DNA of 64,000 bases, from contig JAVKFU010000015.1 of NCBI GenBank assembly GCA_040223695.1, forward strand, positions 632,692-696,691, read 5' to 3'. The DNA is from Deltaproteobacteria bacterium. GTDB lineage: Bacteria; Desulfobacterota_D; UBA1144; Nemesobacterales; UBA2774. The notes under the pieces are model-generated. The model did not search any database. It was not told where the DNA came from and worked only from the letters and a program-made list of their open reading frames with translations. Every line of letters starts with the position of its first letter. Position 1 is the first letter of the stretch. The translations under genes were made by a program, and so were the position numbers. This document shows, in pieces, positions 6,038 to 45,267 of the stretch.

Positions 6038-6406
6038 TTAGACAATTTCTTCAAGATTGAGGACTTCTAGGAGCTTCAAGCGAAGTTCATAGGCTTCTCT
6101 CGCGCGGCTCTGGGGGAATTTTTCAATGGGGAACTTGGCTATCGCTTCTCTGAGAGCGTCCAGGCTGTGGTCAGACGCTGTGGATACTACGCGCAGGAAT
6201 GTCGGATGTATCTCGGCTTCGATATCAATATAGTCTATATAATGGTGAACAGGGGGCGTGCACATAGCGGTCACCGGACTGCAAAGGATGTCCTTGCCTC
6301 TTATATCCGTAGGTTCCGCGTTCGGCGTGGGCTGGTGGAGATACCACTCTACTTTATCTTTATGTTTAACGAACTCCTCTATGAACCCATCTACAGAGTT
6401 GATCAT
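6038..6406 (-). CDS. hypothetical protein
   Basis: 122-aa ORF with no recognisable motif. Confidence 0.4.
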   Translation of the reverse strand: MINSVDGFIEEFVKHKDKVEWYLHQPTPNAEPTDIRGKDILCSPVTAMCTPPVHHYIDYIDIEAEIHPTFLRVVSTASDHSLDALREAIAKFPIEKFPQSRAREAYELRLKLLEVLNLEEIV

Positions 6407-25404: not shown

Positions 25405-27006
25405 ATGTCTTCAGAAATAGTCAGATACATAAACAAAAAAGACGCCGAACTGCTTCATGAAATAGAACTAGCAGCTAACCAATCAGATCACGACACAGCT
25501 CTAAGATTAACAGAAGACAGACTCGCTAAACCTATCGATTTGTCTCGGCCATCAGAAAGACTACTTAAAGGATCACTAGCCGGTTGGCTAATTGACATAG
25601 GGACTGAATCCGGACAGGAACAAATTGTTAAAAAAGGTCTTTCTATCTTGGAGAATGAGGAGGCGGTCCTTCGTAAAAATGTAACTCAAGCCAGCTATGA
25701 TTATAATATTGGAAACGCTTATAGTTCATTATTTGACCTTAAAAAAAGTAAACCTGGTTTCAAATTAAATCCATCCGAAATCCAAGACATCGTTAAGAGT
25801 AAATCTCGATATTGGAGAGCTTACAAATCCCTACAAACACACGATAGAGCGTTCTGGGCAAAGTTGTGGGTCAACCTTGGTAATTGTTTGTTAAAATGCA
25901 ACCGAGTTGTAGAAGCGATTATATACTATGATGATGTAATTACTGAATATCCGAAATTTCCACAGGCAAATGCAAGCAGGGCTGATGCCTTACTCAAATT
26001 AAATGAAATATCAGATACCTATTCAATCAATTTACTCGCTCAAGCGATTGAGGGGTATTCAGTAGCAAGCGATTTTGCAGATACATTGTACAATCGTCAA
26101 GCTTGGCATATGCGCTCAGAATTACTGAAACAAAAATTATTAGAACATGGATACGACAGCAAAAATATAGAACATGAAACTTCCGAAACTGAATCAGAAC
26201 ATAATCAGCACTCAAAATATCGTAAATTTTGCTTAGAACAACATCTATCCCTTTCTGAGCATTCTATTTACTGTGGATGCGCTGGAGCTAGAAGTGATGA
26301 TCTCACAGTACCTAAATCATCCGGGCCAATAGGAGGTAATTTTGTTCCTAGAATGGAGTTCATATTAAATCGAGTTAAGTCAGAGTTTACATTTGCTAGA
26401 TTGATGTATTACCAAGCAGTACTTCCTTTAGAATCCGAATGGGACCTCTTGGAAGATGAAATCCGAATAACACAACTATTTGAGGATGAGATGCATGGCC
26501 CTCGCTCTGAAATGCTACGTCTGAGTTTTCGAAATTGTTTTGCAATACTTGATAAAATTGCAATGGCAATTTGCGAATTATTCGAATTAGCTCAGCCTAA
26601 GGAAGTATTATATTTTGAGAGCTTCTGGCGATCCCGATGGGAACGTATAAACCAAATCGATAATCCGGCAATAGTTGCCCTATACGCACTCGCTACAGAT
26701 TTAAATAGCAAAACAGGAGATTGGCCTGAGTTTAAAGAATGGCGTAATGCAATTGAACACAGAATCTTTTGTGTTCTTCAAAAGGAAAATTTTCACTCTG
26801 ACCCCTATTCTGTAGTTAATCAAAATGCAGGGGACCTAGTCGTTCCGTTAGATGTATTCCATCAGCGCGCTTTATTTTTATTAAGATTGACCCGTTCCGC
26901 TATATTCAGCTTTGTATTTTGTGTACGTTATGAAGGTTCTAAACTTACCGAAGGTGATCCTAGCAAAGCAATTACGCTAAGAGGCCGCAATGAGGAAAGC
27001 GGATAA
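25405..27006 (+). CDS. TPR-like + C-terminal HEPN-domain protein (LA2681-like; predicted RNase/defence protein)
   Basis: The C-terminal region contains RNAIEH, matching the HEPN Rx4-6H (RNxxxH) motif. The N-terminal about 250 aa are helical and TPR-like. The gene lies in a markedly AT-rich segment. Confidence 0.5.
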   Translation: MSSEIVRYINKKDAELLHEIELAANQSDHDTALRLTEDRLAKPIDLSRPSERLLKGSLAGWLIDIGTESGQEQIVKKGLSILENEEAVLRKNVTQASYDYNIGNAYSSLFDLKKSKPGFKLNPSEIQDIVKSKSRYWRAYKSLQTHDRAFWAKLWVNLGNCLLKCNRVVEAIIYYDDVITEYPKFPQANASRADALLKLNEISDTYSINLLAQAIEGYSVASDFADTLYNRQAWHMRSELLKQKLLEHGYDSKNIEHETSETESEHNQHSKYRKFCLEQHLSLSEHSIYCGCAGARSDDLTVPKSSGPIGGNFVPRMEFILNRVKSEFTFARLMYYQAVLPLESEWDLLEDEIRITQLFEDEMHGPRSEMLRLSFRNCFAILDKIAMAICELFELAQPKEVLYFESFWRSRWERINQIDNPAIVALYALATDLNSKTGDWPEFKEWRNAIEHRIFCVLQKENFHSDPYSVVNQNAGDLVVPLDVFHQRALFLLRLTRSAIFSFVFCVRYEGSKLTEGDPSKAITLRGRNEESG

Positions 27007-28584: not shown

Positions 28585-29190
28585 TTGGACATGGCGGAAA
28601 CAATAAATGGCAGGAATATAATTATGGAAAACACGCCGGAGACTGCTCAGGTATGGGAGGAATTTTCGGGGAACATCAGGTCGCATCTGCTCAGAAAGCT
28701 CAGGCGAAAGGACGACGCGGATGACTTGATGCAGGAGATTTTTATAAAAATACACACGCACATCGAATGCCTGAGGGATAAGAAAAAACTCACGTCCTGG
28801 ATATATACGATAGTCGAGAATACGCTCAACGACTATTACAGGAAGAACAGATATGATTCGGAATTTGACGAGAGCAGGGCCGCTACCAAAGATTCGGCAG
28901 AAGAAAACCCACTGCCCTGCATTACGCAATGCCTGAACGTATTCATAGACCGGTTGCCTATGAAGTACCGTGAGCCGCTCATGTTGAGCGATTTAGAGGG
29001 TAAAAAGCAGAAAGAAATAGCGCGGCGAATGGGTCTCTCCTATTCGGGGCTTAAGTCCAGAGTGCAGAGGGGTCGCCGGATGATAAAGGATATGTTCATC
29101 GAGTGCTGCAAGCTTTCTTTCGATGAAAAAGGGGTAATAAATAAAGAATATCAGGGGATGGAGAACTGTAAAATTTGCGGCGGGGCTTGA
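28585..29190 (+). CDS. ECF-type sigma-70 family sigma factor with Cys-rich C-terminal extension (SigZ-like)
   Basis: Region 2 reads DLMQEIFIKIH. Region 4 reads LSDLEGKKQKEIARRMGLSYSGLKSRVQRGRRMI. The C-terminus reads ECCKL...CKICGG. Confidence 0.75.
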   Translation: MDMAETINGRNIIMENTPETAQVWEEFSGNIRSHLLRKLRRKDDADDLMQEIFIKIHTHIECLRDKKKLTSWIYTIVENTLNDYYRKNRYDSEFDESRAATKDSAEENPLPCITQCLNVFIDRLPMKYREPLMLSDLEGKKQKEIARRMGLSYSGLKSRVQRGRRMIKDMFIECCKLSFDEKGVINKEYQGMENCKICGGA

Positions 29191-30091: not shown

Positions 30092-33000
30092 TCAATTCAG
30101 TCTCTTCGCCCCCGCATCCTGTATCGCGCTCCTCAGTCTTCCGCCCTGCCGTATGCTCCTCACCAGCATGTTCTCTATCTCGGTCCCTATCGACGCCGCC
30201 GTAGCCCCCGAGCCTCCGTTCACGTTCACGTTGATATCCACATGCATCTCGCCTGAGCCTCCCTCGTCTCCGCCTATCCTCTCGACAAACCTGCTTAACA
30301 GTCCGTCCCCTGTGCCTATACTCTCACGGAACTGGTCCGCAAGCCCCGGCCCACTCGCCACAGCGCTCACGAACTGATTTATCAGCCCGGCCCTCAGCTG
30401 CACGAGCTGGTCCTCGGTCAGCACGGCCTCCCTTCCGTGCAGCACCGCAAGCGTCCCCCTGCCGAAGTCCCGTATCAACCCTCCCGTGCCCTCGGCGAAA
30501 CCCTGCACGTTCTGCAGCACCGACTCTATCGACCTCAGCACCACAAGCTGCTCGTCGTTTATACCCGCTATCGCCTGAAGTCCCTCGATCTCGTTATCGA
30601 ATCCGAACTCGCTCACTTCCTCGAGCTGCGCAAACCTCTCCTCCAGTATCCTTATATACTCCCCGCGTATGAACTCAAACAGCTCTATCAGCCTCTGCGA
30701 CGCCTGGAATGTATTCTGCGCCGTCTGCTCCCCTATGGCCGACAGCCTGTCCTGCAGCGCCTCTATCCGCGCGTCTATCCGCTCGATCTGCGCGTTCTGC
30801 TCCTGGGTCAGCCTCTCTATCTCGGCGTTTATCTCCTCTACTGACCGCCCCCTCGTCTCGGTCAGCTCCGCAAGCGCGTCGAGCCCTCCTGTTACCTGAT
30901 CGAATATAGCCACGAACTCGGGCGAATTCACTCCGAACGCGTCCCCGGCCACGTCGAACAGGGTTTTGAACGCGTCCTCGAGCCGGGCTACGATCTCGAC
31001 CTGCCTTTCGGGATCTACTGTACCGGCAAGCTCCTGCTGAAGCTGCGCAATATTCGACTGTAGCGCGTTTACCTGCTCCACTCCCGTGAGCACCGACTCC
31101 GGGCTGAACAGTATCGAGTCGAGCGTACGCCTTATGGATTCCGCAAGCGACGCGAACTCCTCCGCCAGCCTCAGCTCCTCGTTAAGCGCGTCTATACGCT
31201 CGTCAAACGCCTCCTGTATCCGCTCCTTCTCCTCGTTAAGCCCGTCTATTCTTCTCTCTATCGCCGCTCTTTGCGCCTCGGCAGCCCTTCGGGCCGCTTC
31301 CTGCCGCGCCTGAAAAGCCGCCTGCTCTTCGGCGAGCAATTGGTTCCCCAATCCCGCTAGGTCGTCCAGCAGCGCCTCCTGCTCCGAAAGCGACAGGTTC
31401 TCTATATTGTCCGTAAAGAAGCCCTGCACCTGCCCAATCGCCGTATTGAGGAACCCGGTCAGGTCCACTGAGCTTCCGCCGAATCCCGCGATAGTGCTGT
31501 TAAGCTGGCTTATCTTCCCAATCAGGCTCGATATGGAGCTTACGATTTCCGACGTCAGCGACAGTATCGCGTTTCTCAGCTCGACGTAGTTCTGCACCGT
31601 CTCCGGGTCAAGCTCTGCGTTCTTGATTAATTCCCCTAGCTCTTCCGTCAGTTGATCAATGGACGGCACGGCGTCGAATCCGAGCGTCCGGGAGAGCGAA
31701 TTTACGGAATTAATAGTCGTCCCTATCGCGTCATTTATATTCCCCTCTACTATGTTGAACGCATCGACAAAGGCGTTCAGATCGGCAAGCAGATCCTGCC
31801 CCACTGCCGCTCTCGCCTCCCTCGACCCTGCGCTCTCGAATTCCCGGAATCTCTCGTCGAGGAACGATGCCGCCGCATCGGGCAGTACCCCGAGCGACTC
31901 GAACATGGTCTGCAGGAATCCGTCCACCGCGAACAGGAACTTCGCCTGTATCTCCCCGTTTATAAGCTGATTGAATTTCTCCGCTATCTTCTTCCCCTTG
32001 GCGTCAAACTCGAAAAGCCTCTCCCCCGCGACTACCGTCTCCGTATCAAGCTCCGTATTCAGAAGCTCGTCCGTGAGCTTGTCCGCGAGGTCAGCCGGAA
32101 GCTTGTTGATAATATCCAGAAGGTTATTTACTGCCCCCTGTATCGCGTCGCCTAGAATCTCCTTTATCTTATCCGAGCCGCCAACGCCCAAACCGGCGCT
32201 TCGCTTTACGGATATGTCTATTATGTCGTTTATCAGGGTATCGGTGTCGAGCAGTTCGGATATAAACGCCGCCCTGCGCTCGCCTTCTTCTTTTATGCTG
32301 TCAAACTCTATGTCCAGACGAGGTGTCTTCTTGAATAAGCCGGATAGTAATGGGATGGCTAATGCCGCGGCAACGGCAACTGCACCGAGAATTGACAAAG
32401 CTCCACCTATCCCGCCAATACCTGCAAGAAATCCGGTTGATGGAAGCTCCCCGGCAGCTAAAGTCCCTACACTCACTCCACCGGTCAATCCTCCGACACC
32501 GAGACTTCCTGGCACAGCTGTAGCGGGTATTGTTGCAGCCGCTCCGCCTGCAAATCCAAATAGACCTGCAATTCCGGAACCGCCACCTAATATATCTCCA
32601 ATACTTCCGCCTATACCACCAACACCGCCAACAATATCTGCGCTTCCTCCAGCGCCTCTGGCACTTCCTGCCAACCCGAACAGTGCCCCAATACTTACCA
32701 CAATCTGCTTTGTGACAATCGCCGCAACAAGGTCGAGAAACGACCTGAGTATCGCCTCAAAAGCCTGCTTCACCAAGTCCTTTAAATCCTCAAACTTCCC
32801 GGTCAGCACGTTGAAAAATAAGTCGGAGAAATTCTGACTCATCTGGCTGAGTGTGTTAGCAAAGAAATCCGCTATGAGTTCACTATTCGACCCTACGGAT
32901 TCAACAAAATCCTCGAACCCCTGTTTTATTCCCTCAAAGAATCCGCCAGATTCATTCAGGTTTTCCACTCGCTCCGAAAACTCATCTAACCCCCCATCCG

Positions 33001-34027
33001 CCGCCGTTTGAGCCGCAGTATCTACACCCTCCACACTCGTGCTCATCGTGTCTATAGACTTGCTTGCTTGTCCGGTCTGGTCTATCACACCTTGAAGCCC
33101 GTCTTGACTTAGGTTGTTGGTAGATTCTGTAACATCCTCAGTAACACCGAGAAGTTCCCCCAACTCTTCTTTCGTATGCCCGAATATTACTGCCCCTTCC
33201 CCCGCGTTTTTAACTAAATCAACAAGAGATGTCGAAAATTCACCCTGCGCTGTAGTCCCTTCCTTCATCGCCGCAGACTGCTCCAAGGCCGATTCTCTAG
33301 CTTTATCGTATTGCAGACTAAGACCCTGTAATGTCAGACGGAGGGTCTTAAAACCCCTGTCTTGTTCATCAATTGCCCTTTGTAATTGCGTTGATACTGA
33401 TGGTCCAATAAATTCCTCTAAGCCACGACGTTGAAAATCCTCAACTTTTAGGTCAGGAATGTCAACCGTTAATTCAGGAATTTCTATACCCTCGATTTTA
33501 CCAAATTCTTCATTCAAATCACTCTGTAGCGCTTCTCTATATGCCTGCGCTAACTCTTCAATTGTTCTTCCTTTCGCAAGAAATTGTTCAAATTGTCTTT
33601 TAGCTATTTCTTGCAAATTACCTTCAATAGGTTCTGCTTTTTGGGGATTAACAAAAGGTCTTAGATCTACTGGCAAATCAACTATCACGCTTTCATTAGT
33701 GAACGGTTCCAGAATATCTTTAATAAGCAAGTTGATATTATGACCAATTTCCGCAGCCTGTTCACCACCAATCAACTTTGCAGCGTTCGTTAAAATATTT
33801 CCAAATGGAGAATTTGTTTTAAAAACTCTGTCAAATGCAGATTCCGCTTGTTTCATTGACGATTCAACATCTTTATTAAACTTGAAAAAAGTAGATTCTG
33901 ATGTTTTAGTAATAAACTCAAATCCGTCTCTAAATTCTTCGAATGTACTATTAGCTGTCTTTCCTAATTGTATTAATTGCTCATCTTCTACAATAAACTT
34001 GACCGTAATTTCATTTATCTCTGCCAT
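30092..34027 (-). CDS. giant helical protein, phage tail tape measure protein-like
   Basis: 1311 aa with no signal peptide. Long coiled-coil segments. A central Gly-rich hydrophobic block, GGIGGSIGDILGGGSGIAGLFGFAGGAAA...ALAIPLLSGLF, is typical of tape measure proteins. An AT-rich promoter region lies upstream. Confidence 0.5.
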   Translation of the reverse strand: MAEINEITVKFIVEDEQLIQLGKTANSTFEEFRDGFEFITKTSESTFFKFNKDVESSMKQAESAFDRVFKTNSPFGNILTNAAKLIGGEQAAEIGHNINLLIKDILEPFTNESVIVDLPVDLRPFVNPQKAEPIEGNLQEIAKRQFEQFLAKGRTIEELAQAYREALQSDLNEEFGKIEGIEIPELTVDIPDLKVEDFQRRGLEEFIGPSVSTQLQRAIDEQDRGFKTLRLTLQGLSLQYDKARESALEQSAAMKEGTTAQGEFSTSLVDLVKNAGEGAVIFGHTKEELGELLGVTEDVTESTNNLSQDGLQGVIDQTGQASKSIDTMSTSVEGVDTAAQTAADGGLDEFSERVENLNESGGFFEGIKQGFEDFVESVGSNSELIADFFANTLSQMSQNFSDLFFNVLTGKFEDLKDLVKQAFEAILRSFLDLVAAIVTKQIVVSIGALFGLAGSARGAGGSADIVGGVGGIGGSIGDILGGGSGIAGLFGFAGGAAATIPATAVPGSLGVGGLTGGVSVGTLAAGELPSTGFLAGIGGIGGALSILGAVAVAAALAIPLLSGLFKKTPRLDIEFDSIKEEGERRAAFISELLDTDTLINDIIDISVKRSAGLGVGGSDKIKEILGDAIQGAVNNLLDIINKLPADLADKLTDELLNTELDTETVVAGERLFEFDAKGKKIAEKFNQLINGEIQAKFLFAVDGFLQTMFESLGVLPDAAASFLDERFREFESAGSREARAAVGQDLLADLNAFVDAFNIVEGNINDAIGTTINSVNSLSRTLGFDAVPSIDQLTEELGELIKNAELDPETVQNYVELRNAILSLTSEIVSSISSLIGKISQLNSTIAGFGGSSVDLTGFLNTAIGQVQGFFTDNIENLSLSEQEALLDDLAGLGNQLLAEEQAAFQARQEAARRAAEAQRAAIERRIDGLNEEKERIQEAFDERIDALNEELRLAEEFASLAESIRRTLDSILFSPESVLTGVEQVNALQSNIAQLQQELAGTVDPERQVEIVARLEDAFKTLFDVAGDAFGVNSPEFVAIFDQVTGGLDALAELTETRGRSVEEINAEIERLTQEQNAQIERIDARIEALQDRLSAIGEQTAQNTFQASQRLIELFEFIRGEYIRILEERFAQLEEVSEFGFDNEIEGLQAIAGINDEQLVVLRSIESVLQNVQGFAEGTGGLIRDFGRGTLAVLHGREAVLTEDQLVQLRAGLINQFVSAVASGPGLADQFRESIGTGDGLLSRFVERIGGDEGGSGEMHVDINVNVNGGSGATAASIGTEIENMLVRSIRQGGRLRSAIQDAGAKRLN

Positions 34028-34217
34028 TTCCAGTACCTTGATTAACGTATCGACAAATTAATCTTTCACTATACGTTTACTTTATTCCTTAGATAGATTT
34101 ATAGGTGTTTGCTTGCAATCCCTCTATATTTAGAACCCTTTATTTATATTGTTGATTAATGGATACATATATGTAATTACTTAACTAGACTTCATATTCT
34201 TATTCTTTTATAATAGC

Positions 34218-34544
34218 GTGATGAAAGAAATCTGCTCCAATTGTCTTTACACCGGTGAGTCCGGTCATAGCGGAAGAAATGCTTGCAGGTTCCCTTTGGC
34301 GGGCCTGCTATTGGGAGTGGGTGTAAACGGTATTACAAGCGTAATACCGGATAGTGAAACTTCCGGTTCCACGCTCGTACTCGTAATAATTACTATTGCT
34401 TGTTTATTTACCGCCTTCTATTTACTTTACAGGTGTATCAATAAGAGCAGGAGAGCATGTCCCAAGTGTAACTATGGCGATATGATTGAGATGAATACCC
34501 CGGAAGCGGACAAACTAGTGGAGCAACATAGCCTGAAAAATTAG
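34218..34544 (+). CDS. split zinc-ribbon membrane protein, paralog 1 of 4
   Basis: N-terminal CSNC, two TM helices, C-terminal CPKCNYGDMIEMNTPEADKLVEQHSL. Confidence 0.55.
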   Translation: MMKEICSNCLYTGESGHSGRNACRFPLAGLLLGVGVNGITSVIPDSETSGSTLVLVIITIACLFTAFYLLYRCINKSRRACPKCNYGDMIEMNTPEADKLVEQHSLKN

Positions 34545-34566
34545 TTTTATATTCTCAAATACAAAC

Positions 34567-34914
34567 ATGCAAAAACTTTGCCCAGAATGTAACTATATTG
34601 GATACGAATCCCGTGGACAGAAATCACTTTTAATATGGGGAATAGCTTTAACTATTTGGGGAGCAATAACACTACTTGGCGCACTTATGCTTTATTCCTT
34701 TTCCGTTAGGATACTTGCGTCAGTAATTTGGCTCTCATTTGGTGTTGTTACCTTATATTACTACATTCATTACCCAAACATATGCCCAAACTGCAAGCAG
34801 AAAAAAACCATGATCCCTCTCGACACTCCCAAAGCCCAGGCCCTAATTAAAGATCACAACCTGACTATCCCGCAAGAAACATCACAACAGTCCAGCCCCA
34901 AAACCACTCAATAA
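34567..34914 (+). CDS. split zinc-ribbon membrane protein, paralog 2 of 4
   Basis: MQKLCPECNYIGY..., two TM helices, ...CPNCKQKKTMIPLDTPKAQALIKDHNLT. Confidence 0.55.
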   Translation: MQKLCPECNYIGYESRGQKSLLIWGIALTIWGAITLLGALMLYSFSVRILASVIWLSFGVVTLYYYIHYPNICPNCKQKKTMIPLDTPKAQALIKDHNLTIPQETSQQSSPKTTQ

Positions 34915-34959
34915 CCGAACATATCTACCATCCTTTTTTATCTGTCATTCTGAATGTAA

Positions 34960-35245
34960 ATTAGAAATCTCGTCTTTGTATTACCCTTCTCGACATTCAC
35001 GGAATTGGCGTTAAGAAAATAGAATATTGAGGCGTAAAAATCTTTCCGGGACGATTTCGAGCTAGCGAGGAATTGGACGCCCTTTCCTATAAGAAATAAT
35101 GTAATTAGTCTCGCTTCACTAAACCACGATTCTAATCAGGGTTGAATTAAAAGATTTTAGCCGAGATAGCCCATTTTTAGCCACATTCCGTGCAGTCGGT
35201 GATTTTTGCTTCTTTTCATCTAGGAAAAGAAGAAAGATGATTTAT
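34960..35245. repeat. modular composite intergenic repeat, copy 2 (full length)
   Basis: About 85% identical over about 280 bp to the 45.76-kb copy. Confidence 0.8.
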
Positions 35246-35655
35246 CTTTTTCCCGCCCAGCCTGAACCTTTCGAAGAATGTCATTTAGAGCGCAGCCGAG
35301 AAATCTATTCATTTATCCTTTAGAGTCTGTCATTCTGAACCCTGTCCTGAACTCGTTTCAGGATCATTTCAGAATCTCGATTTTCATCTTTCAATCCTTT
35401 AATTCCCTCCTTAGTAAAAGGAAACGAATGCGAACGTGTGAGCATTTAGACGCCTTTAGTTAAAAGCACTTATGCCCATTATCTACCGGCACATAAACTC
35501 TTGGAATAAAATAGGGTGGATTTAAAATACAATATAAAAACCTCACCTACGCCGCTAGCCTATACTCCACTTCCTCTACATTAACCTTATTATCATATAA
35601 CTGAACGACCACTCTCCCTTCATCCTCAAAATCCCAACTGTGTTATAATTTCCTG

Positions 35656-36030
35656 ATGCAAAAACTCTGCACCAATTGCAATTTCATCGGCAAAGGTAAG
35701 CACGGCCTCTTGTCCGGCAATATCTATGTCGGAATAATAGAAGTAGTTGTGGCGGTAATTATACTCTTTACAGGCCAGAAGCTCCTTCAGTCTTTTATAT
35801 ACGGAGCCGTGGTCGCGGCAATAGTAGCAATAGCCGGACTGATAAATATTATGGACTCGTTCTCGGAGGGCCGGCTCTGCCCTAACTGCGGCAAGGACAA
35901 GATGATCCCGCTCGACACTCCCAAAGCCCAGGTCCTCATCCAAGAACACAACCTCACAGTCGGCGATAATGTCCCCCAAAACACGCAGAATGACCAAAAA
36001 CCAGACCAGTTTGAAGCCCCCAAATCTTAA
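35656..36030 (+). CDS. split zinc-ribbon membrane protein, paralog 3 of 4
   Basis: MQKLCTNCNFIGKG..., two TM helices, ...CPNCGKDKMIPLDTPKAQVLIQEHNLT. Confidence 0.55.
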   Translation: MQKLCTNCNFIGKGKHGLLSGNIYVGIIEVVVAVIILFTGQKLLQSFIYGAVVAAIVAIAGLINIMDSFSEGRLCPNCGKDKMIPLDTPKAQVLIQEHNLTVGDNVPQNTQNDQKPDQFEAPKS

Positions 36031-36214
36031 ATCCATCTCTTAACTTCCATTCATAACCAACTATTATTCCAACATATTTATAGTAACACTGCAATACTTC
36101 GACCCACCTTTGCAACCACAGCGCCACAACCCCGCTTTTGTTTTTTTCATTCCCCCCCTTAGAAAAAGGGGATACAGGGGGATTTTTCCTATTTCTTATT
36201 CCCTAATGCCTTTT

Positions 36215-36395
36215 CCTTTCCCGACATTCACAGAATTGGCGTTAAGAAAACAGATTATCGAGGCGTGAAAATCTTTTAGGAATGGGGCTGAATTAACAGA
36301 TTTTAGCCGAGATGGTCTGTTTTTAGCCAAATTCTGTTAAGTCGATGATTTTTGCTTCTTTTTATCAAGAAAAAGAAGATATAATTTTTTGCTTT
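36215..36395. repeat. modular composite repeat, partial copy (modules B+D)
   Basis: Contains cccgacattcacagaattggcgttaagaaaacag...gatttttgcttctttttatcaagaaaaagaag. Confidence 0.7.
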
Positions 36396-36522
36396 TTTCC
36401 CTTGTCACTACATGTCGGGTAAAACCTCTCGGCAATCTCAAACCCCCCTTATCCTGAGCCCGGTCAAAGGATAAATACATGCCCCGCTTTCAATCCCTCA
36501 CCCATCCATTATCCTATCCCTG

Positions 36523-36930
36523 GTGAAAAAACTCTGCACAAACTGCTTCTACATCGGATACGAAGACAGGTCCACACACGGGAGCTTCAAGACCGAGTCC
36601 ATCCTCTGGGCGGTTGCCTTTGTCCTCGCATTCACGGGCGTTTTCGAGTCCGACCTATGGCTGCCGGCAACCATAACATTCGCACTCGCCTTTTTCTATA
36701 CTCTGACCATCTTCAGGGTAAAGATATGCGTCTGCCCAAGGTGCGGCCGCGACTCCATGATCCCGCTCAAAACCCCCAAGGCGGAGGCTATAATTCATGA
36801 GCACCACCTCGTGATGCCCAGCGAATTCAAAAATCCTGCGCGCACGATCTTCGGCCTCACATTCCGCGACGCGCTCCTCATCCTCACCACCATCCTTATA
36901 ACCGTCATGCTCTACAACCACTTCACCTAA
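36523..36930 (+). CDS. split zinc-ribbon membrane protein, paralog 4 of 4 (GTG start)
   Basis: VKKLCTNCFYIGY..., TM helices, ...CPRCGRDSMIPLKTPKAEAIIHEHHL. An extra C-terminal TM helix is present. Confidence 0.5.
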   Translation: MKKLCTNCFYIGYEDRSTHGSFKTESILWAVAFVLAFTGVFESDLWLPATITFALAFFYTLTIFRVKICVCPRCGRDSMIPLKTPKAEAIIHEHHLVMPSEFKNPARTIFGLTFRDALLILTTILITVMLYNHFT

Positions 36931-36939
36931 CTACTCATT

Positions 36940-37900
36940 CCCACTTAATCCTTTTTCTCCCTCTCTCTTGAGGGAGAGGGTAAGGGTGAGGGGGCACCTT
37001 CTGTTAAGTCGGCGATTTTTACTTCCTTTCATCAAGGAAAAGAAGATATAATTTTTTGACTTACCCTTGTCATTGCGAGCGCAGCGCGGCAATCCCAAAT
37101 CCGTCATGCTGAACTTGTTTCAGCATCTAACCCTTTGCCTTTCCCCTTCCGTCATTCTGAATTCATTTCAGAATCTAGAATTTTGCTTTTGCCTCCCTTT
37201 CACCCCTCCATAATCTCAAGAATCCTATTGACTCCATACCCCCAAATCATCTATAATAATTACGGAGGTAATTATGACAAGCGAGTGTGACAGCCCACCA
37301 GACAGGTTGGTCGAAAATTCGTGAGATCCGAAAATGGTGAGTACTTAAACAATCACCATAAATAATAGCTAAAACTAGCTATTGCTTAAAAAAAGCATAC
37401 AAACCAAAAAGGGAGCCACAGTGCTCCCTTTTCCATTTCTAGATATAGTAAACATTATTTGTCATTACAAACGAATGTGAGAAATCTAACCCTTGCTTTT
37501 TCTTCGTCATCGCAAACCGCAAAGTGGAACGACAACGTCGCATTATCGAAGTTTGTCATGCTGAACTACGATTTCGAGTAAGTAAGGAATCGGGTCCATT
37601 GACAAATTGCAACCGAGTAAGTATTCCCCTATCATGCCAGTCCAAACCCAAAACTTTCAGCATCTAGCCTTTCGTCTTGTCCATTCTGACATTCACATAA
37701 TTAGCGTCAAGAAAATCTTATGTTGATGCGTCAAAATGTTTTGGGCCGGGGCGGAATTAAAACATTTTAGCGTTAACATGAGATTTTTAGCAATATTATG
37801 TGCAGTCGGTGATTTTTGCTTCTTTTCATCTAGGAAAAGAAGAAAGTCTTTATCTTTTAGTCATTGCGAGTGGAGCATATTATGCGTAGCGCGGCAATCT
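36940..37900. repeat. about 1-kb non-coding cluster of stacked repeat units
   Basis: Contains the gagggagagggtaagggtgagggggc hairpin, a D-module end at 37.00-37.05 kb, gtcattgcgagcgcagcgcggcaatc, gtcatgctgaa, cattctgaattcatttcagaatc, a gtcatgctgaactacgatttcgag...gaggaatcgggtcc C-type unit, and a B+D composite at 37.69-37.87 kb. Confidence 0.75.
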
Positions 37901-37910
37901 AATCTTTTCA

Positions 37911-38240
37911 TTAAGAGCCAGCAATACCCCTACGGCGCCCGAGAGCCTCAATCCCTTCCCCCTTGGCGCCCCTTTTCATTTTCCTCTCCTGAGACTTCAG
38001 GGCAAACTCTCTGAACGCCTCATCCACGGCAATCACTACCCGAAACGCCCTCATCTTCGGATGCCCCTCGAACTCTAGCTTCTCCAGGTTATTCCATATC
38101 TCGGAATGCACCAGTGTGCCTACGGTCATCCCCTGCCCGTAGCGCTGAGACTGGCATAGCTCCCATAGAGATACCCACTCCCGCTGGTGCTGGGGGAGGT
38201 TCCGTATAAATCCTTCCGTCTCGTCCCCCGCCTTTTTCAA
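37911..38240 (-). CDS. downstream -1-frame ORF of a G/GT-like pair (candidate frameshift extension)
   Basis: Its frame is open upstream to about 38476, so it overlaps the last about 52 codons of the 38321..38890 ORF in the -1 frame. No conventional start or RBS of its own. Basic sequence. Confidence 0.4.
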   Translation of the reverse strand: MKKAGDETEGFIRNLPQHQREWVSLWELCQSQRYGQGMTVGTLVHSEIWNNLEKLEFEGHPKMRAFRVVIAVDEAFREFALKSQERKMKRGAKGEGIEALGRRRGIAGS

Positions 38241-38320
38241 TATGCGAAGCTCGTCCCTGTCGTTCTTTTCAAACTTGAGCCTGTTCTTCCGCCTGAGTTT
38301 CCTCTTTTCTTCGAGCTGAC

Positions 38321-38890
38321 TTACCCTGCGTCTGATTGAGTCTGCGCGGTACCTTCTTTTTTCCCCTTTGAAGCGGACTTCGAATCCCTCGTATATCCGC
38401 TCGAAGTACTCCCTGACTCTTCCAAAAAATTTTCCTCTTCTTTCTTCTCCTCCTTCGTGACCTTGCCGGCTATGAGCTCATAGCTCGACCTGAAGTTGCT
38501 AAGCAGGAAAGAGGACTTACAGAACTCATTGTAGAGCCATTCTTTAGTGTCCTTGTCGTATAGCACCCGCTCGCCCTTGTCGGTAAGCCCTGTAATGTCC
38601 TGTATGAGGTTATATACCAGGAACTTCGCGGCGCGCTTCGGGTCTCCTCCGAGAATCTTGAAGCTCCTGTCCTCGACAGTCAGGTCTTGCGTAAGGTCCC
38701 TTATCTGAGTAAGCCTCGCCACTGTCGGGTACGGACACTTGAACCCCACCTCGCGCCAGCCCTCGTCGTAACCCACCCACTCGCCTTTCTCGTCCTGGTA
38801 AGCGGGCCAGTCCTCATCCTCTATATCCCTGTAGGGATATATCGTCACATAATTTGATACATGTTTGGTCAAACTCTTAATTTCAGGCAT
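38321..38890 (-). CDS. acidic protein, phage tail assembly chaperone (gpG)-like candidate
   Basis: 189 aa, acidic (EDEDWPAYQDEKGEWVGYDEGW). Its 3' end holds T TTT TTG (about 38422-38428) and GGGGAAAAAAG (about 38355-38365), both inside the overlap with the downstream -1 ORF. Confidence 0.4.
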   Translation of the reverse strand: MPEIKSLTKHVSNYVTIYPYRDIEDEDWPAYQDEKGEWVGYDEGWREVGFKCPYPTVARLTQIRDLTQDLTVEDRSFKILGGDPKRAAKFLVYNLIQDITGLTDKGERVLYDKDTKEWLYNEFCKSSFLLSNFRSSYELIAGKVTKEEKKEEENFLEESGSTSSGYTRDSKSASKGKKEGTAQTQSDAG

Positions 38891-39130
38891 ATCCCCTCCT
38901 TTACACTATTGCACTATGTCATTCTGAACTTCGTCCTGAACTCGTTTTTCAGGATCTATTCAGAATCCAATCCCTTCCCGCTCATCCTGAGCCTAGTCGA
39001 AGGATGTCATTGAGTGGTTGCAAAGCAACAGCGGCAATCCCGTCTTTCTCTCGTCATTGCGAGCCGCAAAGCGGCGCGGCAATCTCGTCCTTTCCCCTCA
39101 ATCATTTAATCCCCTACCGGGAAAAGAAAA

Positions 39131-39190: not shown

Positions 39191-40666
39191 TTAAACAACG
39201 GCCTCAACCATATCCTCAACTGTTGGCTGGTTGTTCTTCACCGTAACTGTAATGTCCGTATTCGGCGCGCTGCTGGTATCAAGCCTGCCAAGGAAGCTCT
39301 TCTCATCCGTCACCGGGTCCTTCGAGCTCACGCCCGGATGCGGACTCCCCTCGAACTTGGCTTTGGGCACGCTCATTGTCACCTGATGGCTGTTGTCACC
39401 GATATAGGTCCATATAAAGTCGAGCTGCGTCTCTGTTCCCGCAACTGTCTTCTCAGCGAATTGCTGGCTTCCGTACTGATAAGTGAATGAGCCGCTTACA
39501 GATCCTTCCCCGGGGGTGATCGCGCCCTTGATCGGCGACCCTACGACGAAGTTACCCTGTATGGTATTCTCGATCACGAGACTCAGGTTTTCAAACTGGT
39601 TTGTGGTCTGCTCCACACTGTCCACCTGCACGCTCGATTCCCAATGTGCGTAAGGAATGTTTTCAATCGAGGCCGGAGTCCCGAATATGTTCTCTGACAG
39701 TATTTGAAATGCCTTCCCTACTACGTTCATATTGAGCTGCGGAAGGTCGGTCGGGTCCACGTTAAGAGTAAGATTGCTTACCTTGTTCCCCCTGATAAGC
39801 ATGAGCGATTCAATATCGGTAAACCTCAGAAGGAAACTGATACCCTCGGGAATGGTGGAGCCTCTATAAATCGTATGTGTGAAGGGTTTAATTACTTCAT
39901 CGCACGCCGCCCCGTTAGAGTGAGCCTTCCTGAGCCCGTTGGGATGAGCAGCCGAGTCCAGCGTAAGCTGCCCCGCAGCCGTGCTGCCTATCTTTACAAT
40001 CTCTGCGTCATTTCCCGTGCTTAACTGAGCAAACTCACCGGCTGCGAAACCAACTTCGGATGTCACTGATACCGTTGTATCTCCGGCGGAAGCCGCTGCC
40101 GACAAAGTCGTACTTGCCCCCGCTGTTGACGTTCCGACTGTGGTGTAATCACTATTCAAGGCGTGTAAGTAAAACAGCCCCACTGTCGCTATATCGAGCT
40201 CAACAGTCATATCCGCTCCTGTGTCATAGTTTCCCTCACGGAAGTTTGAAAGTACACGCGAGCCGGAGAGCGCCTGCGACCTCTGCAGATCTCTTCCGCC
40301 GGACGGTGTGAAGGACCTCACGTTACCTAGCTTGAACCAGTTATTAGCCGGGTCTACCTCAACCACAGCCTCCCCCGATTCATGCCTGTAGTTTATCTTT
40401 GTGTTCGCGTCGAGACTCACCGTCGTGCCAGACACGTAACCTGCATCCACCTTTACGAATTCCATATTGTTGTCGTTCCCGACCTTAAGAATATCCCCCG
40501 CCGCGATATTAGTATCGCTCGCTACCGTAACGCTAGTCGCTCCGGGGTTAACAGCTGCGGCAAGCGTAGTGGACGCTCCGCCCCCGACCGCGGCTGACGG
40601 CGTCACGCCGTTTACCTGTTCAATCTTGTACCAAATCTCCGCACTTGAGCCTGAAGCCTGTGCCAT
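39191..40666 (-). CDS. hypothetical structural protein with two tandem ~100-aa N-terminal domains; possible phage major tail protein
   Basis: 491 aa, no signal peptide. Thr/Ser/Ala-rich and beta-rich. An internal duplication is visible (ASTTLAAAV...TSVTVAS...AAGDILKVGND / ASTTLSAAASAGDTTVSVTSEVGFAAGEFAQLSTGND). The phage assignment rests on gene-order context only. Confidence 0.3.
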   Translation of the reverse strand: MAQASGSSAEIWYKIEQVNGVTPSAAVGGGASTTLAAAVNPGATSVTVASDTNIAAGDILKVGNDNNMEFVKVDAGYVSGTTVSLDANTKINYRHESGEAVVEVDPANNWFKLGNVRSFTPSGGRDLQRSQALSGSRVLSNFREGNYDTGADMTVELDIATVGLFYLHALNSDYTTVGTSTAGASTTLSAAASAGDTTVSVTSEVGFAAGEFAQLSTGNDAEIVKIGSTAAGQLTLDSAAHPNGLRKAHSNGAACDEVIKPFTHTIYRGSTIPEGISFLLRFTDIESLMLIRGNKVSNLTLNVDPTDLPQLNMNVVGKAFQILSENIFGTPASIENIPYAHWESSVQVDSVEQTTNQFENLSLVIENTIQGNFVVGSPIKGAITPGEGSVSGSFTYQYGSQQFAEKTVAGTETQLDFIWTYIGDNSHQVTMSVPKAKFEGSPHPGVSSKDPVTDEKSFLGRLDTSSAPNTDITVTVKNNQPTVEDMVEAVV

Positions 40667-40803
40667 ATTGTTCCACCTCCGGTTTTTATATAAAAAAGCC
40701 CGGAACGGCCTGAACCGCCCGGGCTTATATTTTTAATTTGTTATTAGTCATCCTGAATTTATTCAGGATCTAAACTTTTATGATCTAATCCGCTTTCATG
40801 AGA

Positions 40804-41931
40804 CTAGTAATTGATAATCTTCCCGTTCTCATCCCATCCTGTAGTCCTCTGATACTGGCTTTGAAAATCATTACGCCAACTGTCGTTCCACTTCCAGTCG
40901 CCGCTTTTTATCTTCCACGTGTTATAGTCCACACTGTTGTCAGCCGATTCGGCATCGAAAACTTCCAGCGCAGCTACACCGGGGTTAGCGCTCTGGAAAT
41001 AGTTATTTTGAATCTCATTATTCGAACTCTTCCATATGCCCAGATGAGTATGGCTCGTATCGTCTGTTGAAGGATACTTTTCAAGTATAAATTTATTATT
41101 GGTAATTCTAGAATTTCGCACATGATGATATATGGCCATTCCCCAGGAATTATCCTCGATCAGGTTTTTTTCGATATCCAGATTTTCTATCCAGGTTGAG
41201 CATTTCGAGCCGTTCATCTGAATCCCCCTGCCCCCGTGATTTCGTATTACGTTACCGCGAATAGCAACTCCGGAAATCCCCTTGCACTCGAAATCAGATA
41301 GATATATGCCGTGGCAGTGTTTGGGACTCGAGCCCCGCCAGTCCTTGTTGTAGCACTCCCCTTTTCCAGTCCCGTTCGACTCTATTATGTTATTTTCGAT
41401 TGTTATATTATCAGTCGATATGATCAGGATTCCCTGATACGTGTTTCGGTGAATTTTATTATTCCGTATGATATTATTGCCTTTGTAAAGCTTTACCCCG
41501 TCCCAGCCTTTCATTACTTCAAAACCCTGAAACACGATCCATTCGGCGTCGATCTCGACCCTGTCGCCTTCGCCCTTTCCCGGAACGATAATAGGCTTAT
41601 GTCCGGGGTAGGCTTCGATTGTAATCGGTCTCAGACGTGTCCCGCTGTTTTTGACAACAATTTTTCCGGTATAGACACCGCCTATTACCCTGATAATATC
41701 ACCCGGGACTGCTGAATCGACAGCTCCCTGTATGGTTGTGTAATCGCCGTTAGCGCCCGGCGCAACTATCTTCACAGATGGCAAGCGCGCACCTGCTGAT
41801 TCGACGCAATCAGCGCAGCTGGAAGGATCGGAGAGAGTGTAAACGCCTCCCACCACAGCCGGGGCCTGGTCGATAAAATATAGAGGTAAAATTGCAGTCA
41901 AGACAACTGACAGAATTGCCGTCGATTTCAT
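40804..41931 (-). CDS. secreted right-handed parallel beta-helix repeat protein (pectate-lyase-fold; possible depolymerase/tailspike-like)
   Basis: Signal peptide. Repeated NNxIxxN / GxxIxxN beta-helix coils: NNIIRNNKIHRN, ITIENNIIESNG, IRGNVIRNHGG. Confidence 0.6.
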   Translation of the reverse strand: MKSTAILSVVLTAILPLYFIDQAPAVVGGVYTLSDPSSCADCVESAGARLPSVKIVAPGANGDYTTIQGAVDSAVPGDIIRVIGGVYTGKIVVKNSGTRLRPITIEAYPGHKPIIVPGKGEGDRVEIDAEWIVFQGFEVMKGWDGVKLYKGNNIIRNNKIHRNTYQGILIISTDNITIENNIIESNGTGKGECYNKDWRGSSPKHCHGIYLSDFECKGISGVAIRGNVIRNHGGRGIQMNGSKCSTWIENLDIEKNLIEDNSWGMAIYHHVRNSRITNNKFILEKYPSTDDTSHTHLGIWKSSNNEIQNNYFQSANPGVAALEVFDAESADNSVDYNTWKIKSGDWKWNDSWRNDFQSQYQRTTGWDENGKIINY

Positions 41932-42204: not shown

Positions 42205-42906
42205 TTAATAAATAGTCCTCCAGGCATAAGCATCCGCCGCGTCCTTTGCGCAAACTTCAATAGTATCCTTTACTCCCGCATTACCTTCTACCATCCAAAA
42301 TTTGCCTCTTTCAGAAACGCTGCAAGTTGGTTTAACAACAGCCCCTCCGTTATCAGAAATTTTAATCCCCCCCGCTTCAACGGAAACCAGGCTCTTTGCA
42401 TAAATACTATCGGGTCTATTGGCGCCGGTTTTCCCAATATCGCCGCTTGCGTCAGTATTAAATATAAAATCACCATCGTAAATTCTAACTCCAATAACAC
42501 GAGAAATACTAGCTACAACAACTCCGTTACCCCAAAACTCAATATTGTTAACACCATTCATTTTAATTCCAGTATCGTCATCTTCGCCTACCAGTCTCTG
42601 GTCAAATATAATTATGTTGTTAGCACCACCTTGGCCTATAACTGTCTGGTCACTTGTATTGACTGAAAGTAAATTTATATCTGCTGTATTAGCTGCGTTC
42701 CTAGCTTTTATAAGAGTAGAGTTATTAGGACCTTTCAGTGAAGCAGAACCAGTTAGGTTGATATCGCCCGCCATACTCCCGCCGGATTTCGGCAGGACAT
42801 TGGAGGGAATTATAATGTCTGCTTCAATAATATCCTCATTGATCTGCGATTGAGCATAACTTGAAATAAGAATTATAAATACGATAACGAGTATAAATTT
42901 TCTCAT
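42205..42906 (-). CDS. secreted protein with tail-fibre-like SGGSMAGDINL motif
   Basis: Signal peptide. LPKSGGSMAGDINLTGS resembles the GG[ST]M[TA]G motif of phage tail fibre proteins. Confidence 0.4.
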   Translation of the reverse strand: MRKFILVIVFIILISSYAQSQINEDIIEADIIIPSNVLPKSGGSMAGDINLTGSASLKGPNNSTLIKARNAANTADINLLSVNTSDQTVIGQGGANNIIIFDQRLVGEDDDTGIKMNGVNNIEFWGNGVVVASISRVIGVRIYDGDFIFNTDASGDIGKTGANRPDSIYAKSLVSVEAGGIKISDNGGAVVKPTCSVSERGKFWMVEGNAGVKDTIEVCAKDAADAYAWRTIY

Positions 42907-42950
42907 GGATTTCTTTTTTACCTCAATTCACCATTCATTCCGAATGTCCC

Positions 42951-43676
42951 TCAGTTTTTCCAAACTCTACGAGTACTGCCTCCTAGCGGCTGCTTTATTT
43001 CAGCTGCTACAGCAGCCCAATCATTACTTGCACTACCGCTCCAATCATATGTTTGACTTGATGAACTTATGGCAGTAACCCCGCTGATGGACAAATCAGG
43101 TCCCTCTGCTATATTTGCTTGCTCTGTCTGTCCAAGATCAGCAGAAAAAGTCAATGCCGCATTGTCTTTATAACACCCTAATGCAATATTTGCACTTTCA
43201 CCGTTTATGGCATTAGGCACGTGAGTAAGAGCTATGCTTGTAGATGCAGCCGCTGTATTTGAAGCGGTTATATCAGGTGCTTCATCGGCTGCATCTATAA
43301 TCGAAACAGCTATCGCTATTCTGTCTGCTGAATTTGCGCTCAAATCGAATGAGACTGTATTTATGCCGATTGCCGGATTTGTAAGATAATAAATAGAACA
43401 AACACGTAAATTATTATTTATCTGGTCAACGGCTTCCGTCAAAGCAACACCGTTATAAGTTAATGAGCTCACAGATTTTGCGGAGGTACTCTCTACACCT
43501 ACTAACACTACCAGGTAATCACCGTTATTGTCATGATTAAAGGTAAGAGTTGCTTGGTTCGTACCCGATCTCTGAGCAGAGGTTACATTACCAATAGAGA
43601 TAGAAAAAGCACTCTCATAAGCTCCAAAAAACATTAATAATAAAAATAAAGCCATATTAACAATAAAACGCGTCAT
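42951..43676 (-). CDS. hypothetical secreted protein (paralog A)
   Basis: Signal peptide. The C-terminal ...GGSTRRVWKN is shared with the next gene. The two genes overlap by 4 nt. Confidence 0.45.
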   Translation of the reverse strand: MTRFIVNMALFLLLMFFGAYESAFSISIGNVTSAQRSGTNQATLTFNHDNNGDYLVVLVGVESTSAKSVSSLTYNGVALTEAVDQINNNLRVCSIYYLTNPAIGINTVSFDLSANSADRIAIAVSIIDAADEAPDITASNTAAASTSIALTHVPNAINGESANIALGCYKDNAALTFSADLGQTEQANIAEGPDLSISGVTAISSSSQTYDWSGSASNDWAAVAAEIKQPLGGSTRRVWKN

Positions 43677-44386
43677 TTCCAGATTCTCCTCGAATTTCCA
43701 CTTGCCTGCGGTTCAGGGATGGCAAAGGCTATAGCCCCCCAGTCTTTTGCGCCACTGCCAATTGTCCAATCCATAAGGAATGTCCCAGTGCTTGCCATGT
43801 TTTTTGTTGACGAGCCTATCTCCAAACTAAAGGAAAATGCTGCTGAATATTGTAAAGTTTGCCCTATTCCATCGGCCGTAAAACCTGCGTTGGCGTTATA
43901 CCCGACGCAATCTACAATTATAGAGTTAGCGTTTGTGGTCGTTACGCTGATTTGTGGGTCATTACTAAGTCCGGAGGCCGTTTGTGTCACATCCGGCGCG
44001 CCGTCATTCGCTCCATTTAAAGTCATACCACCCGCTGTGATATTCTGAGAAGCCGAAAGTGTTACTTCTATATTCGCTGTCGTTACGGTAGGGCGGCTTA
44101 GATAAGCAAACCATATAGTTGTACCGCCCTGAGTTACTGTCGTAACCGTCATTGCTTCGGAGGTGTTGAATTCGACACTAGATACTGTTGTGGTGCCGCT
44201 GTTATAAACTCCGCAGGCAGTCAAATAATCCTCACCTGTATTTACGACCTGACTCCATGAATGGGTCGTTGCCGTTCCATTATAAGTTGACGTAGTTCCT
44301 ACGGTCGGGACTTGCGAATAACTTGCAGTGGCAAACGGAAACAATACGACAAATAAAATAAATGTATATCCAAAAACTTTAGTCAA
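43673..44386 (-). CDS. hypothetical secreted protein (paralog B)
   Basis: Signal peptide. The C-terminus reads ...SGNSRRIWK. Confidence 0.45.
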   Translation of the reverse strand: MTKVFGYTFILFVVLFPFATASYSQVPTVGTTSTYNGTATTHSWSQVVNTGEDYLTACGVYNSGTTTVSSVEFNTSEAMTVTTVTQGGTTIWFAYLSRPTVTTANIEVTLSASQNITAGGMTLNGANDGAPDVTQTASGLSNDPQISVTTTNANSIIVDCVGYNANAGFTADGIGQTLQYSAAFSFSLEIGSSTKNMASTGTFLMDWTIGSGAKDWGAIAFAIPEPQASGNSRRIWK

Positions 44387-44416
44387 TTAACAAAACTCCC
44401 TTAATCTATTGGGAAA

Positions 44417-45267
44417 TTAGTCGATGATATACCCCACACATATCATATAAGTATCTGTTTCAGGTGATACTGCGTTATCAACATCGAACCTAAGAACCTC
44501 ACGTGCGGTCAGGGTATTTGCCGCAGTAACCGACTGCGCAGTTGCTACAGTCCCAGGCCCACTACAGGTGGGGGTTGTATGCGTCATCGCATTACCCGCT
44601 CCGTCCTCCAGACTAACTTGTGCTACCGTTGTAGGCGCTAGGCCGTTATAGTTACACCAAATGTCCGTGATTGTGACCGCGCTCACGAATGAGCCGAACA
44701 ACATATCATCGTCAGCAGCCGCCAGATTCTCTATAACTATGCAATCTGTAAATTTCTCGTTTTTTGTCAATATATTCGCATCGGTTATTTGAGTGTTCAG
44801 TTCTGAAATAGTATCGAGCTCGGTTTCCTCAATAGGGTCAAAATCAACTTCAGCTGTTGATATTGTTTGACCAAGGAGAGTTACTTCACCAGCAGCATCA
44901 GGAAATGTCACCGCTCTTGCGGCAGTCAGTGCCGGTATAGTAATTGTCATGGTGTCCACACCCTCTTGAATCTGAAGGCTCGTATCGTCCAATATCAACG
45001 GCCCGGTCATTGTGCCACCGGCAAGCAGTAGATAGTTACTGGCAGTTATAGTATCCGGCACATCCGCATCTGTAATAGAACTACAAGTAGGAGCCGCATT
45101 GTCATTCAAAATAATGGCAAACTGGTTAGCAGCGCACGCTCCGATTCCTGAATAATTACTTGCGAGCTCCCCATCCTCTATGGTCTGGCCGAGCAGGGTT
45201 ATTTCCCCTGTCGCATCAGGAAAAGTTACTGTCCTGTCTGCAGTCGGGTCTGTGATTTGGAATGTTG
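44417..45267 (-). pseudogene. tail-fibre-like protein, apparently 5'-truncated (no ATG/GTG start; open frame runs to a stop at 45268)
   Basis: Contains LLLAGGTMTGPLIL and a duplicated VTFPDA(T/A)GE(I/V)TLLGQTI segment. The track ORF starts at an internal TTG. The frame is open for about 50 more codons upstream with no plausible start or signal peptide. Confidence 0.4.

Follow-up and report, generated by a model that had tools for sequence, protein, structure and literature searches.

We analyzed a pair of overlapping open reading frames (ORFs), G (ORF1) and T, in a 64,000-nt stretch of DNA from a Deltaproteobacteria bacterium (contig JAVKFU010000015.1; here called the window, to whose positions all coordinates refer). 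The pair, all features of which are on the minus strand, is very probably a lambda-type G/GT locus for tail assembly chaperones that is expressed via programmed −1 ribosomal frameshifting. An earlier sequence-only reading had proposed that such a frameshift adds a basic tail to an acidic chaperone, and comparative and contextual evidence now supports this proposal. The pair is positioned between tail tube and tape-measure genes, the shifted ORF overlaps the first and has no start of its own, a slippery sequence is conserved, and conservation in the shifted frame extends from the slip site onward. The class itself is well known; what is new is a member of it that was previously unannotated.

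ORF1 encodes an acidic protein of 189 aa (38890..38321, pI 4.99) and the downstream ORF listed at 37911..38240 is in the −1 frame relative to it, both as the sequence-only reading had described. The −1 frame is free of stops from 38477 to 37911 (188 codons). The long open overlap with ORF1 was thus read correctly, with small errors in its start (38477, rather than ~38476) and length (51 codons, rather than ~52). The earliest ATG, GTG, or TTG codon of the −1 frame is TTG 38240, which lies 79 codons past the point where the frame opens, and no Shine-Dalgarno sequence was found upstream of it. The tail that a −1 shift would add to G is basic (pI 10.3), as had been predicted, and is longer than the ~125 aa first estimated, at 171 aa. 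This T extension carries the strongly conserved motif EW.SLWELCQSQRYGQGMTVGTLVHSEIWNNL.

To compare the junction between G and T among relatives, 64 loci were fetched from metagenomes, metagenome-assembled genomes (MAGs), and IMG/VR; 42 distinct junctions carry both parts. T is in the −1 frame relative to G in 42 of 42, and the −1 overlap, which ranges from 8 to 68 codons among relatives, is maintained in ~39 of them across ~40 to 95% G identity. Intact junctions with an in-register A_AAT_TTT heptamer account for ~36 of the 42. The two ORFs are therefore neither separate genes in relatives nor found in any other frame relationship, the slippery motif is either kept (in the ~36 junctions) or replaced by another heptamer, and stops or indels occur in only a minority of related copies; none of these checks refuted the frameshift claim. 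The relatives come from MAGs of Thermodesulfobacteriota and Candidatus Dadabacteria, and five are on IMG/VR contigs. A BLASTN search of the region against INPHARED phages gave no match.

Protein searches returned the two halves of the locus separately. A search with the model fusion recovered 22 homologs of 179 to 192 aa, every one of which covers the ORF1 part only, while a search with the −1 product recovered 25 proteins of 97 to 161 aa, all of which lack the N-terminal quarter or more. These 22 and 25 partial homologs show that gene callers split and truncate the locus everywhere. The starts chosen for the −1 frame are truncated and inconsistent, giving products of 76 to 161 aa.

The conservation pattern locates the change of frame. 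Codons 152 to 155 of G (GAG GAA AAT TTT) are invariant at the nucleotide level in 16 diverged collinear sequences; elsewhere in G, the same 16-sequence comparison shows codon invariance at 4 of 78 (5%) degenerate codons that encode invariant residues. Before the heptamer, mean pairwise amino acid identity is 0.85 to 0.87 in frame 0 and 0.50 to 0.58 in frame −1. From the heptamer to the G stop, the values are 0.49 and 0.64, respectively, and past the G stop they are 0.36 and 0.62. The heptamer is thus the exact point at which amino acid conservation leaves frame 0 for frame −1, and the conserved −1 sequence starts right there, with GKF[FY]R..YFERIYEG.EVR. Conserved start codons are absent from the −1 frame up to nt 762, where an internal ATG lies within a conserved motif. 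The tape-measure gene (30092-34027) has a stop-free run of 168 codons in its own −1 frame, probably as an effect of composition. Because of this run, open-frame length is weak evidence, and the decisive evidence for the predicted frameshift is comparative.

In the window, the conserved heptamer A_AAT_TTT overlaps a second heptamer, T_TTT_TTG, to form a 10-nt run, A AAT TTT TTG. Three in-frame XXXYYYZ heptamers were observed in the 51-codon overlap, where ~0.26 would be expected. The sequence-only reading had singled out T_TTT_TTG, correctly in the zero-frame register and with coordinates that were off by one (38422-38428 for 38429..38423). As a candidate shift site, this heptamer is backed by a homologous site in a distant relative (L064), but the heptamer conserved in the clade is A_AAT_TTT, which lies one codon 5′ and had been overlooked. 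Among close relatives, T_TTT_TTG is found in the window only; the remaining ones read TTT ACC or TTT TCN. A stimulating role of the Shine-Dalgarno type is possible for the GAGGA beside the heptamer and for the GGAGG-like purine tracts that precede it.

More divergent relatives carry other slippery sequences. Three loci (L011 to L013) have lost AAATTTT, reading GAT GAT TTC instead; an A_AAA_AAG heptamer lies 9 nt farther downstream, and the −1 frame of these loci opens 6 nt ahead of it. In L064, whose G is 43% identical to that of the window, the homologous position reads GAT GAT TTT TTG, that is, T_TTT_TTG, with a −1 frame stop immediately 5′ of it, so that the frame opens at the heptamer. Alignment of the L064 T domain to that of the window begins at residue 1 (24% identity, E value of 2e-13). 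L060 to L063 carry a near-canonical G_GTT_TTT, and in L062, AAATTTT is kept and G ends one codon later. In a 40-member remote alignment, the Phe at the slip position is nearly invariant, and the residue patterns found there (E-N-F-x, D-F-[L/F], and x-K-K) fit three heptamer types. This residue-pattern rule was confirmed at the DNA level for one D-F-L member, L064. Scans of IMG/VR with four remote G members (P0052, P0053, P0058, and P0064) gave no match, and the nucleotide-level test of D-F-[L/F] as T_TTT_TTN therefore rests on L064 and the protein pattern.

We propose that most ribosomes would read ORF1 to its stop at 38321 and produce G, a protein of 189 aa and 21.7 kDa. A minority would slip back 1 nt on A AAT TTT TTG (38432..38423). 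On A_AAT_TTT, the first candidate site, tRNA-Asn would re-pair from AAU to AAA and tRNA-Phe from UUU to UUU; in an alternative slip on T_TTT_TTG, tRNA-Phe would re-pair from UUU to UUU and tRNA-Leu from UUG to UUU. Slipped ribosomes would then read the −1 frame to 37911, giving a GT fusion of 326 aa and 38.8 kDa, in which the first 155 to 156 residues would be the G domain and the last 170 to 171 the basic T domain. The slippery sequence itself, rather than a downstream RNA structure, seems to drive the shift, as in lambda. In lambda, gpG coats the tape-measure protein and T recruits the tube protein (PMC5009743). By analogy, the window G would coat the tape-measure protein and its T domain would recruit the tube protein; G and GT would both be absent from the virion, and their ratio would be set by the efficiency of a shift that is presumably low.

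Four other explanations of the junction, namely, independent initiation, decay, transcriptional slippage, and a shift at a second site, are together unlikely, and all four fail because of the conservation pattern. If G and T were two independent genes, T would be translated from its own start (TTG 38240 or a later ATG), the overlap would be incidental, and no frameshift would be involved. The ORF listing and metagenome gene callers do report a separate downstream ORF of 76 to 161 aa, and in L032 an ATG overlaps the G stop. However, the −1 frame has ~60 to 100 conserved codons ahead of any candidate start, the candidate starts vary among relatives, and the sole conserved one is an ATG inside the most conserved motif. 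Independent initiation would also have to make use of a TTG without a Shine-Dalgarno sequence and would leave the nucleotide invariance of the heptamer unexplained, and we consider it very unlikely. Much the same low probability attaches to the idea that the pair is a decaying pseudogene, whose overlap would be the relic of a 1-nt indel that split a formerly continuous gene. One family member (P0092 in L035) does have G and T in a single frame, related copies contain stops or indels (L024, L026, L040, and L055), and the tail cluster of the window appears truncated. Yet the same −1 relationship recurs at the same codon in ~39 of 42 junctions over ~40 to 95% G identity, both frames are open and under frame-specific constraint, and the heptamer is either invariant or swapped for another slippery heptamer, an outcome that neutral decay would not yield.

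Transcriptional slippage, in which RNA polymerase would drop or add a base in the A4T6 run, is suggested by the T6 run that stands beside an A4 run in the window, and slippage-prone homopolymers are used in some bacterial and insertion sequence (IS)-element genes (PMC5009743). What is conserved, however, is the X_XXY_YYZ codon register, which is relevant to tRNA re-pairing and not to polymerase slippage. The run in most relatives is no longer than A4T4, whereas productive polymerase slippage is usually linked to longer ones, and this explanation is no more probable than the previous two. Least probable of all, and in our judgment extremely so, is a shift at the second site put forward by the sequence-only reading, the G4A6G run GGGGAAAAAAG (38366..38356), instead of the first. 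The run resembles the lambda GGGAAAG, includes an A6 stretch, and overlaps a single formal heptamer in register, A_AAG_GGG (38369..38363). But GGGAAAG itself is out of register: the zero frame reads aag GGG AAA AAA Gaa, so the lambda register G_GGA_AAG does not occur at GGGGAAAAAAG. The motif is also absent from the 18 other orthologous junction sequences that were compared. Moreover, it lies 3′ of residues already conserved in the −1 frame, since those between the two sites (FGRVREYFERIYEGFEVRF) are conserved family-wide, including in the 24%-identical L064 T domain, which aligns from residue 1. We therefore rejected this run as a shift site and retain slippage at the conserved heptamer.

Remote homology and structure prediction may point to the same class of protein. 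A profile search of 1.84 billion clusters placed 45 representatives in the G family. Four remote members match PHROG 313, "tail assembly chaperone," and three match PHROG 8233, which has the same label (P0085, P0089, P0091, and P0072; E values of 8e-7 to 2e-3); the L064 T domain matches PHROG 3817, "tail chaperonin" (E value of 2.6e-5). The window G and T themselves match none of these, direct membership in a curated chaperone family (Pfam Phage_TAC_* or PHROG) was not found, and the apparent link of the window to PHROG 313, 8233, and 3817 is transitive only. A PDB sequence search with G gave no match. AlphaFold2 (AF2) modeling of G with the 22 close homologs was unusable (predicted local distance difference test [pLDDT] score of 39.6), while the 40-sequence remote alignment gave a pLDDT score of 86 and a predicted template modeling (pTM) score of 0.71. 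In the latter model, G is an alpha/beta domain that ends in a long helix (residues 127 to 156) at the slip site; the folded domain spans residues 1 to ~156. The 34 aa that follow form a disordered tail, in which the model shows no secondary structure, and pLDDT is 55 to 68 from residue 151. In a BFVD fold search, the named matches near the top were nearly all tape-measure chaperones or tail assembly chaperones, from phages Shivani, PM135, JSF10, HHTV-2, and Gemini and including Mu FS-gp41 (E values of 5.6e-4 to 0.17).

The neighboring genes are those expected of a tail assembly chaperone locus. The 491-aa structural gene that the sequence-only reading had noted upstream is a tail tube gene (Phage_tube_2). 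It ends 300 nt upstream of ORF1, and in place of the flanking terminators that had been described, a consensus scan found a terminator-like site on its 5′ side only (40720..40703). A tube gene also precedes the G homolog in L001, L002, L003, L004, L032, and L064. On the other side of the pair, the tape-measure-like gene has weak matches to Tape_meas_lam_C (E value of 0.016) and PHROG 4070 (tape measure). The proposed position of the chaperone pair between tube and tape-measure genes was thus borne out, though with an insert before the latter. Among relatives, a long ORF of 1,026 to 1,740+ aa follows T directly or after one small gene in L001, L011 to L014, L032, and L064. The full order of tube, G, T, and long ORF is present in L001, L032, and L064, and its G, T, and long-ORF part was seen in L011 to L016.

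Several observations weigh against our interpretation. No match to the window G, ORF2, or full T extension was found in Pfam or PHROG at an E value of ≤1, the BFVD fold matches have low TM-scores (0.2 to 0.38), and PDB fold searches returned nothing significant. The hairpin or pseudoknot 5 to 9 nt downstream that was sought on the suggestion of the sequence-only reading, and that marks structure-stimulated −1 programmed ribosomal frameshifting, was not found in conserved form: single-sequence folding, RNAalifold, and Rfam revealed no conserved stimulatory structure downstream of the heptamer. RNAalifold with 15 sequences gave only a 5-bp stem ~20 nt downstream (−2.1 kcal/mol), the single-sequence fold of the downstream region had a z score of −1.7, and there was no Rfam match at the junction. 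The lambda frameshift site is not known to need a downstream structure. The tape-measure gene is not adjacent to T, from which it is separated by an insert of 3.9 kb. Within window positions 20000 to 50000, nothing phage-like was seen beyond the tape-measure gene, and the tail cluster looks truncated, so that the pair may belong to a defective prophage that has ceased to use the frameshift. Finally, some related copies, a minority, are decayed. L024 has one in-frame stop in G; L026, on a contig of 5× coverage, has several indels; in L040, a CAG codon of the T frame has become TAG; the heptamer of L049 is mutated to AAATATT; and L055 keeps the G tail and the heptamer with a disrupted T frame.

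Other copies are rearranged or reduced. T-only remnants were found in L033, L057, and L059. In L005 to L007 (G at 6001-6570), the G/T pair lies beside EamA and pentapeptide-repeat genes without a tube gene upstream, and the T remnant of L033 is fused to a hydrophobic N terminus in the same EamA and pentapeptide-repeat surroundings, again without a tube gene upstream, which suggests that these four loci are rearranged or eroded prophage fragments. P0092 (L035, 4098-5039), the 313-aa protein with the G and T domains in a single frame, adjoins electron-transfer flavoprotein genes, and neither a tube nor a tape-measure gene is present on its 5.6-kb contig. This distant relative could be a fused copy that was domesticated or persists as a fossil; as a natural fusion of the two domains, it also speaks for the GT reading. 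A single MAG holds two G/GT copies on separate contigs, L018 (CAVWAZ010000026.1) and L019 (CAVWAZ010000027.1), each 95% identical to the window protein in the best tblastn segment.

The 3.9-kb insert between T and the tape-measure gene (34028-37910) contains four paralogous small genes that are antisense to the tail genes and encode proteins of 108 to 135 aa. Each protein has N- and C-terminal Cys pairs (CxxC and CPxC) around a hydrophobic stretch that is probably membrane spanning, as well as a conserved C-terminal MIPLDTPKAQ.LI.EHNL; a Pfam scan of these paralogs gave no match. The genes sit in repeated cassettes of ~1.1 to 1.5 kb with conserved intergenic blocks. Similar opposite-strand small genes are present at the same place in L002 and L004 and not in L001, L011, L014, L032, or L064. 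The G/T pair is bordered by short dispersed repeats (GTCATTGCGAGC... and GCGCGGCAATC...), which also fill the 300 nt that separate G from the tube gene. These resemble repetitive extragenic palindromic (REP)-type genomic repeats, and in L057 a similar repeat element abuts the truncated T remnant. Upstream of the tube gene, a secreted protein and four unknown proteins are encoded, and beyond these lie host-like genes (an esterase and a major facilitator superfamily [MFS] transporter). Typical Pfam domains of capsid, portal, or terminase proteins were not found among the larger ORFs scanned in window positions 20000 to 50000.

Table 1. Features of the G/T locus and its surroundings, by position in the window
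Feature	Position	Strand	Description
Gene G (ORF1), zero-frame product	38321..38890	−	189 aa, pI 4.99, acidic
ORF2 as listed	37911..38240	−	TTG start, 109 aa, −1 frame relative to ORF1
Overlap of zero frame and open −1 frame	38321..38477	−	51 codons
T extension, −1 frame coding sequence after predicted slip	37911..38426	−	171 aa, pI 10.3, TAA at 37913..37911
Heptamer A_AAT_TTT (gaA AAT TTT)	38426..38432	−	Zero-frame register; putative −1 shift site, conserved in the clade
Overlapping heptamer T_TTT_TTG	38423..38429	−	Zero-frame register
Invariant block GAG GAA AAT TTT	38426..38437	−	Shine-Dalgarno-like GAGGA directly 5′ of heptamer
G4A6G run GGGGAAAAAAG	38356..38366	−	Rejected as shift site
Tail tube gene	39191..40666	−	491 aa; Phage_tube_2, E value of 2.1e-17; PHROG 290 tail protein, E value of 8e-28
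Tape-measure-like gene	30092..34027	−	1,311 aa; coiled coils, glycine-rich hydrophobic segments
Small genes of the insert	34218-34544, 34567-34914, 35656-36030, 36523-36930		Antisense to tail genes
Dispersed repeats	37060-37080, 37889-37909, 39044-39064, 39074-39094
Extracytoplasmic function (ECF) sigma factor	28585-29190	+	Past tape-measure gene
TPR/HEPN_LA2681 protein	25405-27006	+	Past tape-measure gene
Secreted beta-helix protein	40804-41931		Upstream of tube gene
Four unknown proteins	42205-45109		230 to 241 aa; at least three with signal-peptide-like N termini

In lambda, gpG and gpGT are produced by a programmed −1 frameshift at G_GGA_AAG (Levin 1993; Xu 2004, 2013, 2014, summarised in PMC5009743). 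The window pair resembles this system in having two overlapping ORFs between the major tail (tube) and tape-measure genes, a downstream ORF in the −1 frame without its own start, a short acidic product and a long product that is a C-terminally extended fusion, and no evident downstream RNA structure. It differs from lambda in its heptamer (A_AAT_TTT, plus T_TTT_TTG), in the 3.9-kb distance to its tape-measure gene, and in the hosts of its family, which are uncultured Thermodesulfobacteriota and Dadabacteria; there is no detectable sequence similarity between the two pairs. The lambda counterparts of the window G (189 aa) and of its T extension (171 aa) are smaller. E. coli dnaX, with A_AAA_AAG, an upstream Shine-Dalgarno-like element, and a downstream hairpin, offers a second comparison. 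L011 to L013 have the same heptamer with GAGGA ~9 to 10 nt upstream, and purine-rich sequences (GGAGG-like or GAGGA) also precede the heptamer of the window. The Shine-Dalgarno-like spacings in the window (adjacent and about 16 nt) are not the dnaX optimum. In contrast to dnaX, the window family has no conserved downstream hairpin, and the product of the shift would be an extended fusion, not a truncated protein. The window heptamer itself, as A_AAU_UUU, is an established −1 slippery sequence of ronivirus ORF1a/1b (PMC3169540), although that signal belongs to the replicase of a eukaryotic RNA virus and is biologically unrelated.

A different view of the surroundings is that the tail cluster is not a prophage remnant but a partial tail-like module retained by the host in Thermodesulfobacteriota and Dadabacteria chromosomes. 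We think this unlikely. The module would comprise the secreted beta-helix and unknown proteins, the tube protein, the G/GT chaperone, and the tape-measure protein, without head genes or anything phage-like past the tape-measure gene; the antisense cassettes that encode zinc-ribbon membrane proteins form an array between its chaperone and tape-measure genes. If this view were true, the frameshift would be maintained by selection for a nonviral function, and stand-alone or in-frame GT genes such as P0092 would be further steps of domestication.

Under the phage-type reading that we favor, the finding annotates a protein family of ~45 clusters (at 50% identity) for which curated libraries give no direct match. 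Gene callers applied to metagenomes consistently misreport this family as a 189-aa protein plus a truncated fragment of 76 to 161 aa. The family also presents a case of slippery-site turnover within a single chaperone family, in which four heptamer types lie no more than 9 nt from a common position; such a case may be useful to train or test frameshift predictors such as PRFect (PMC10274946). The known picture of the frameshift mechanism is unchanged by the finding. What would be extended is its reach: lambda-style G/GT recoding very probably also operates in phages or prophages of uncultured Dadabacteria and Thermodesulfobacteriota.

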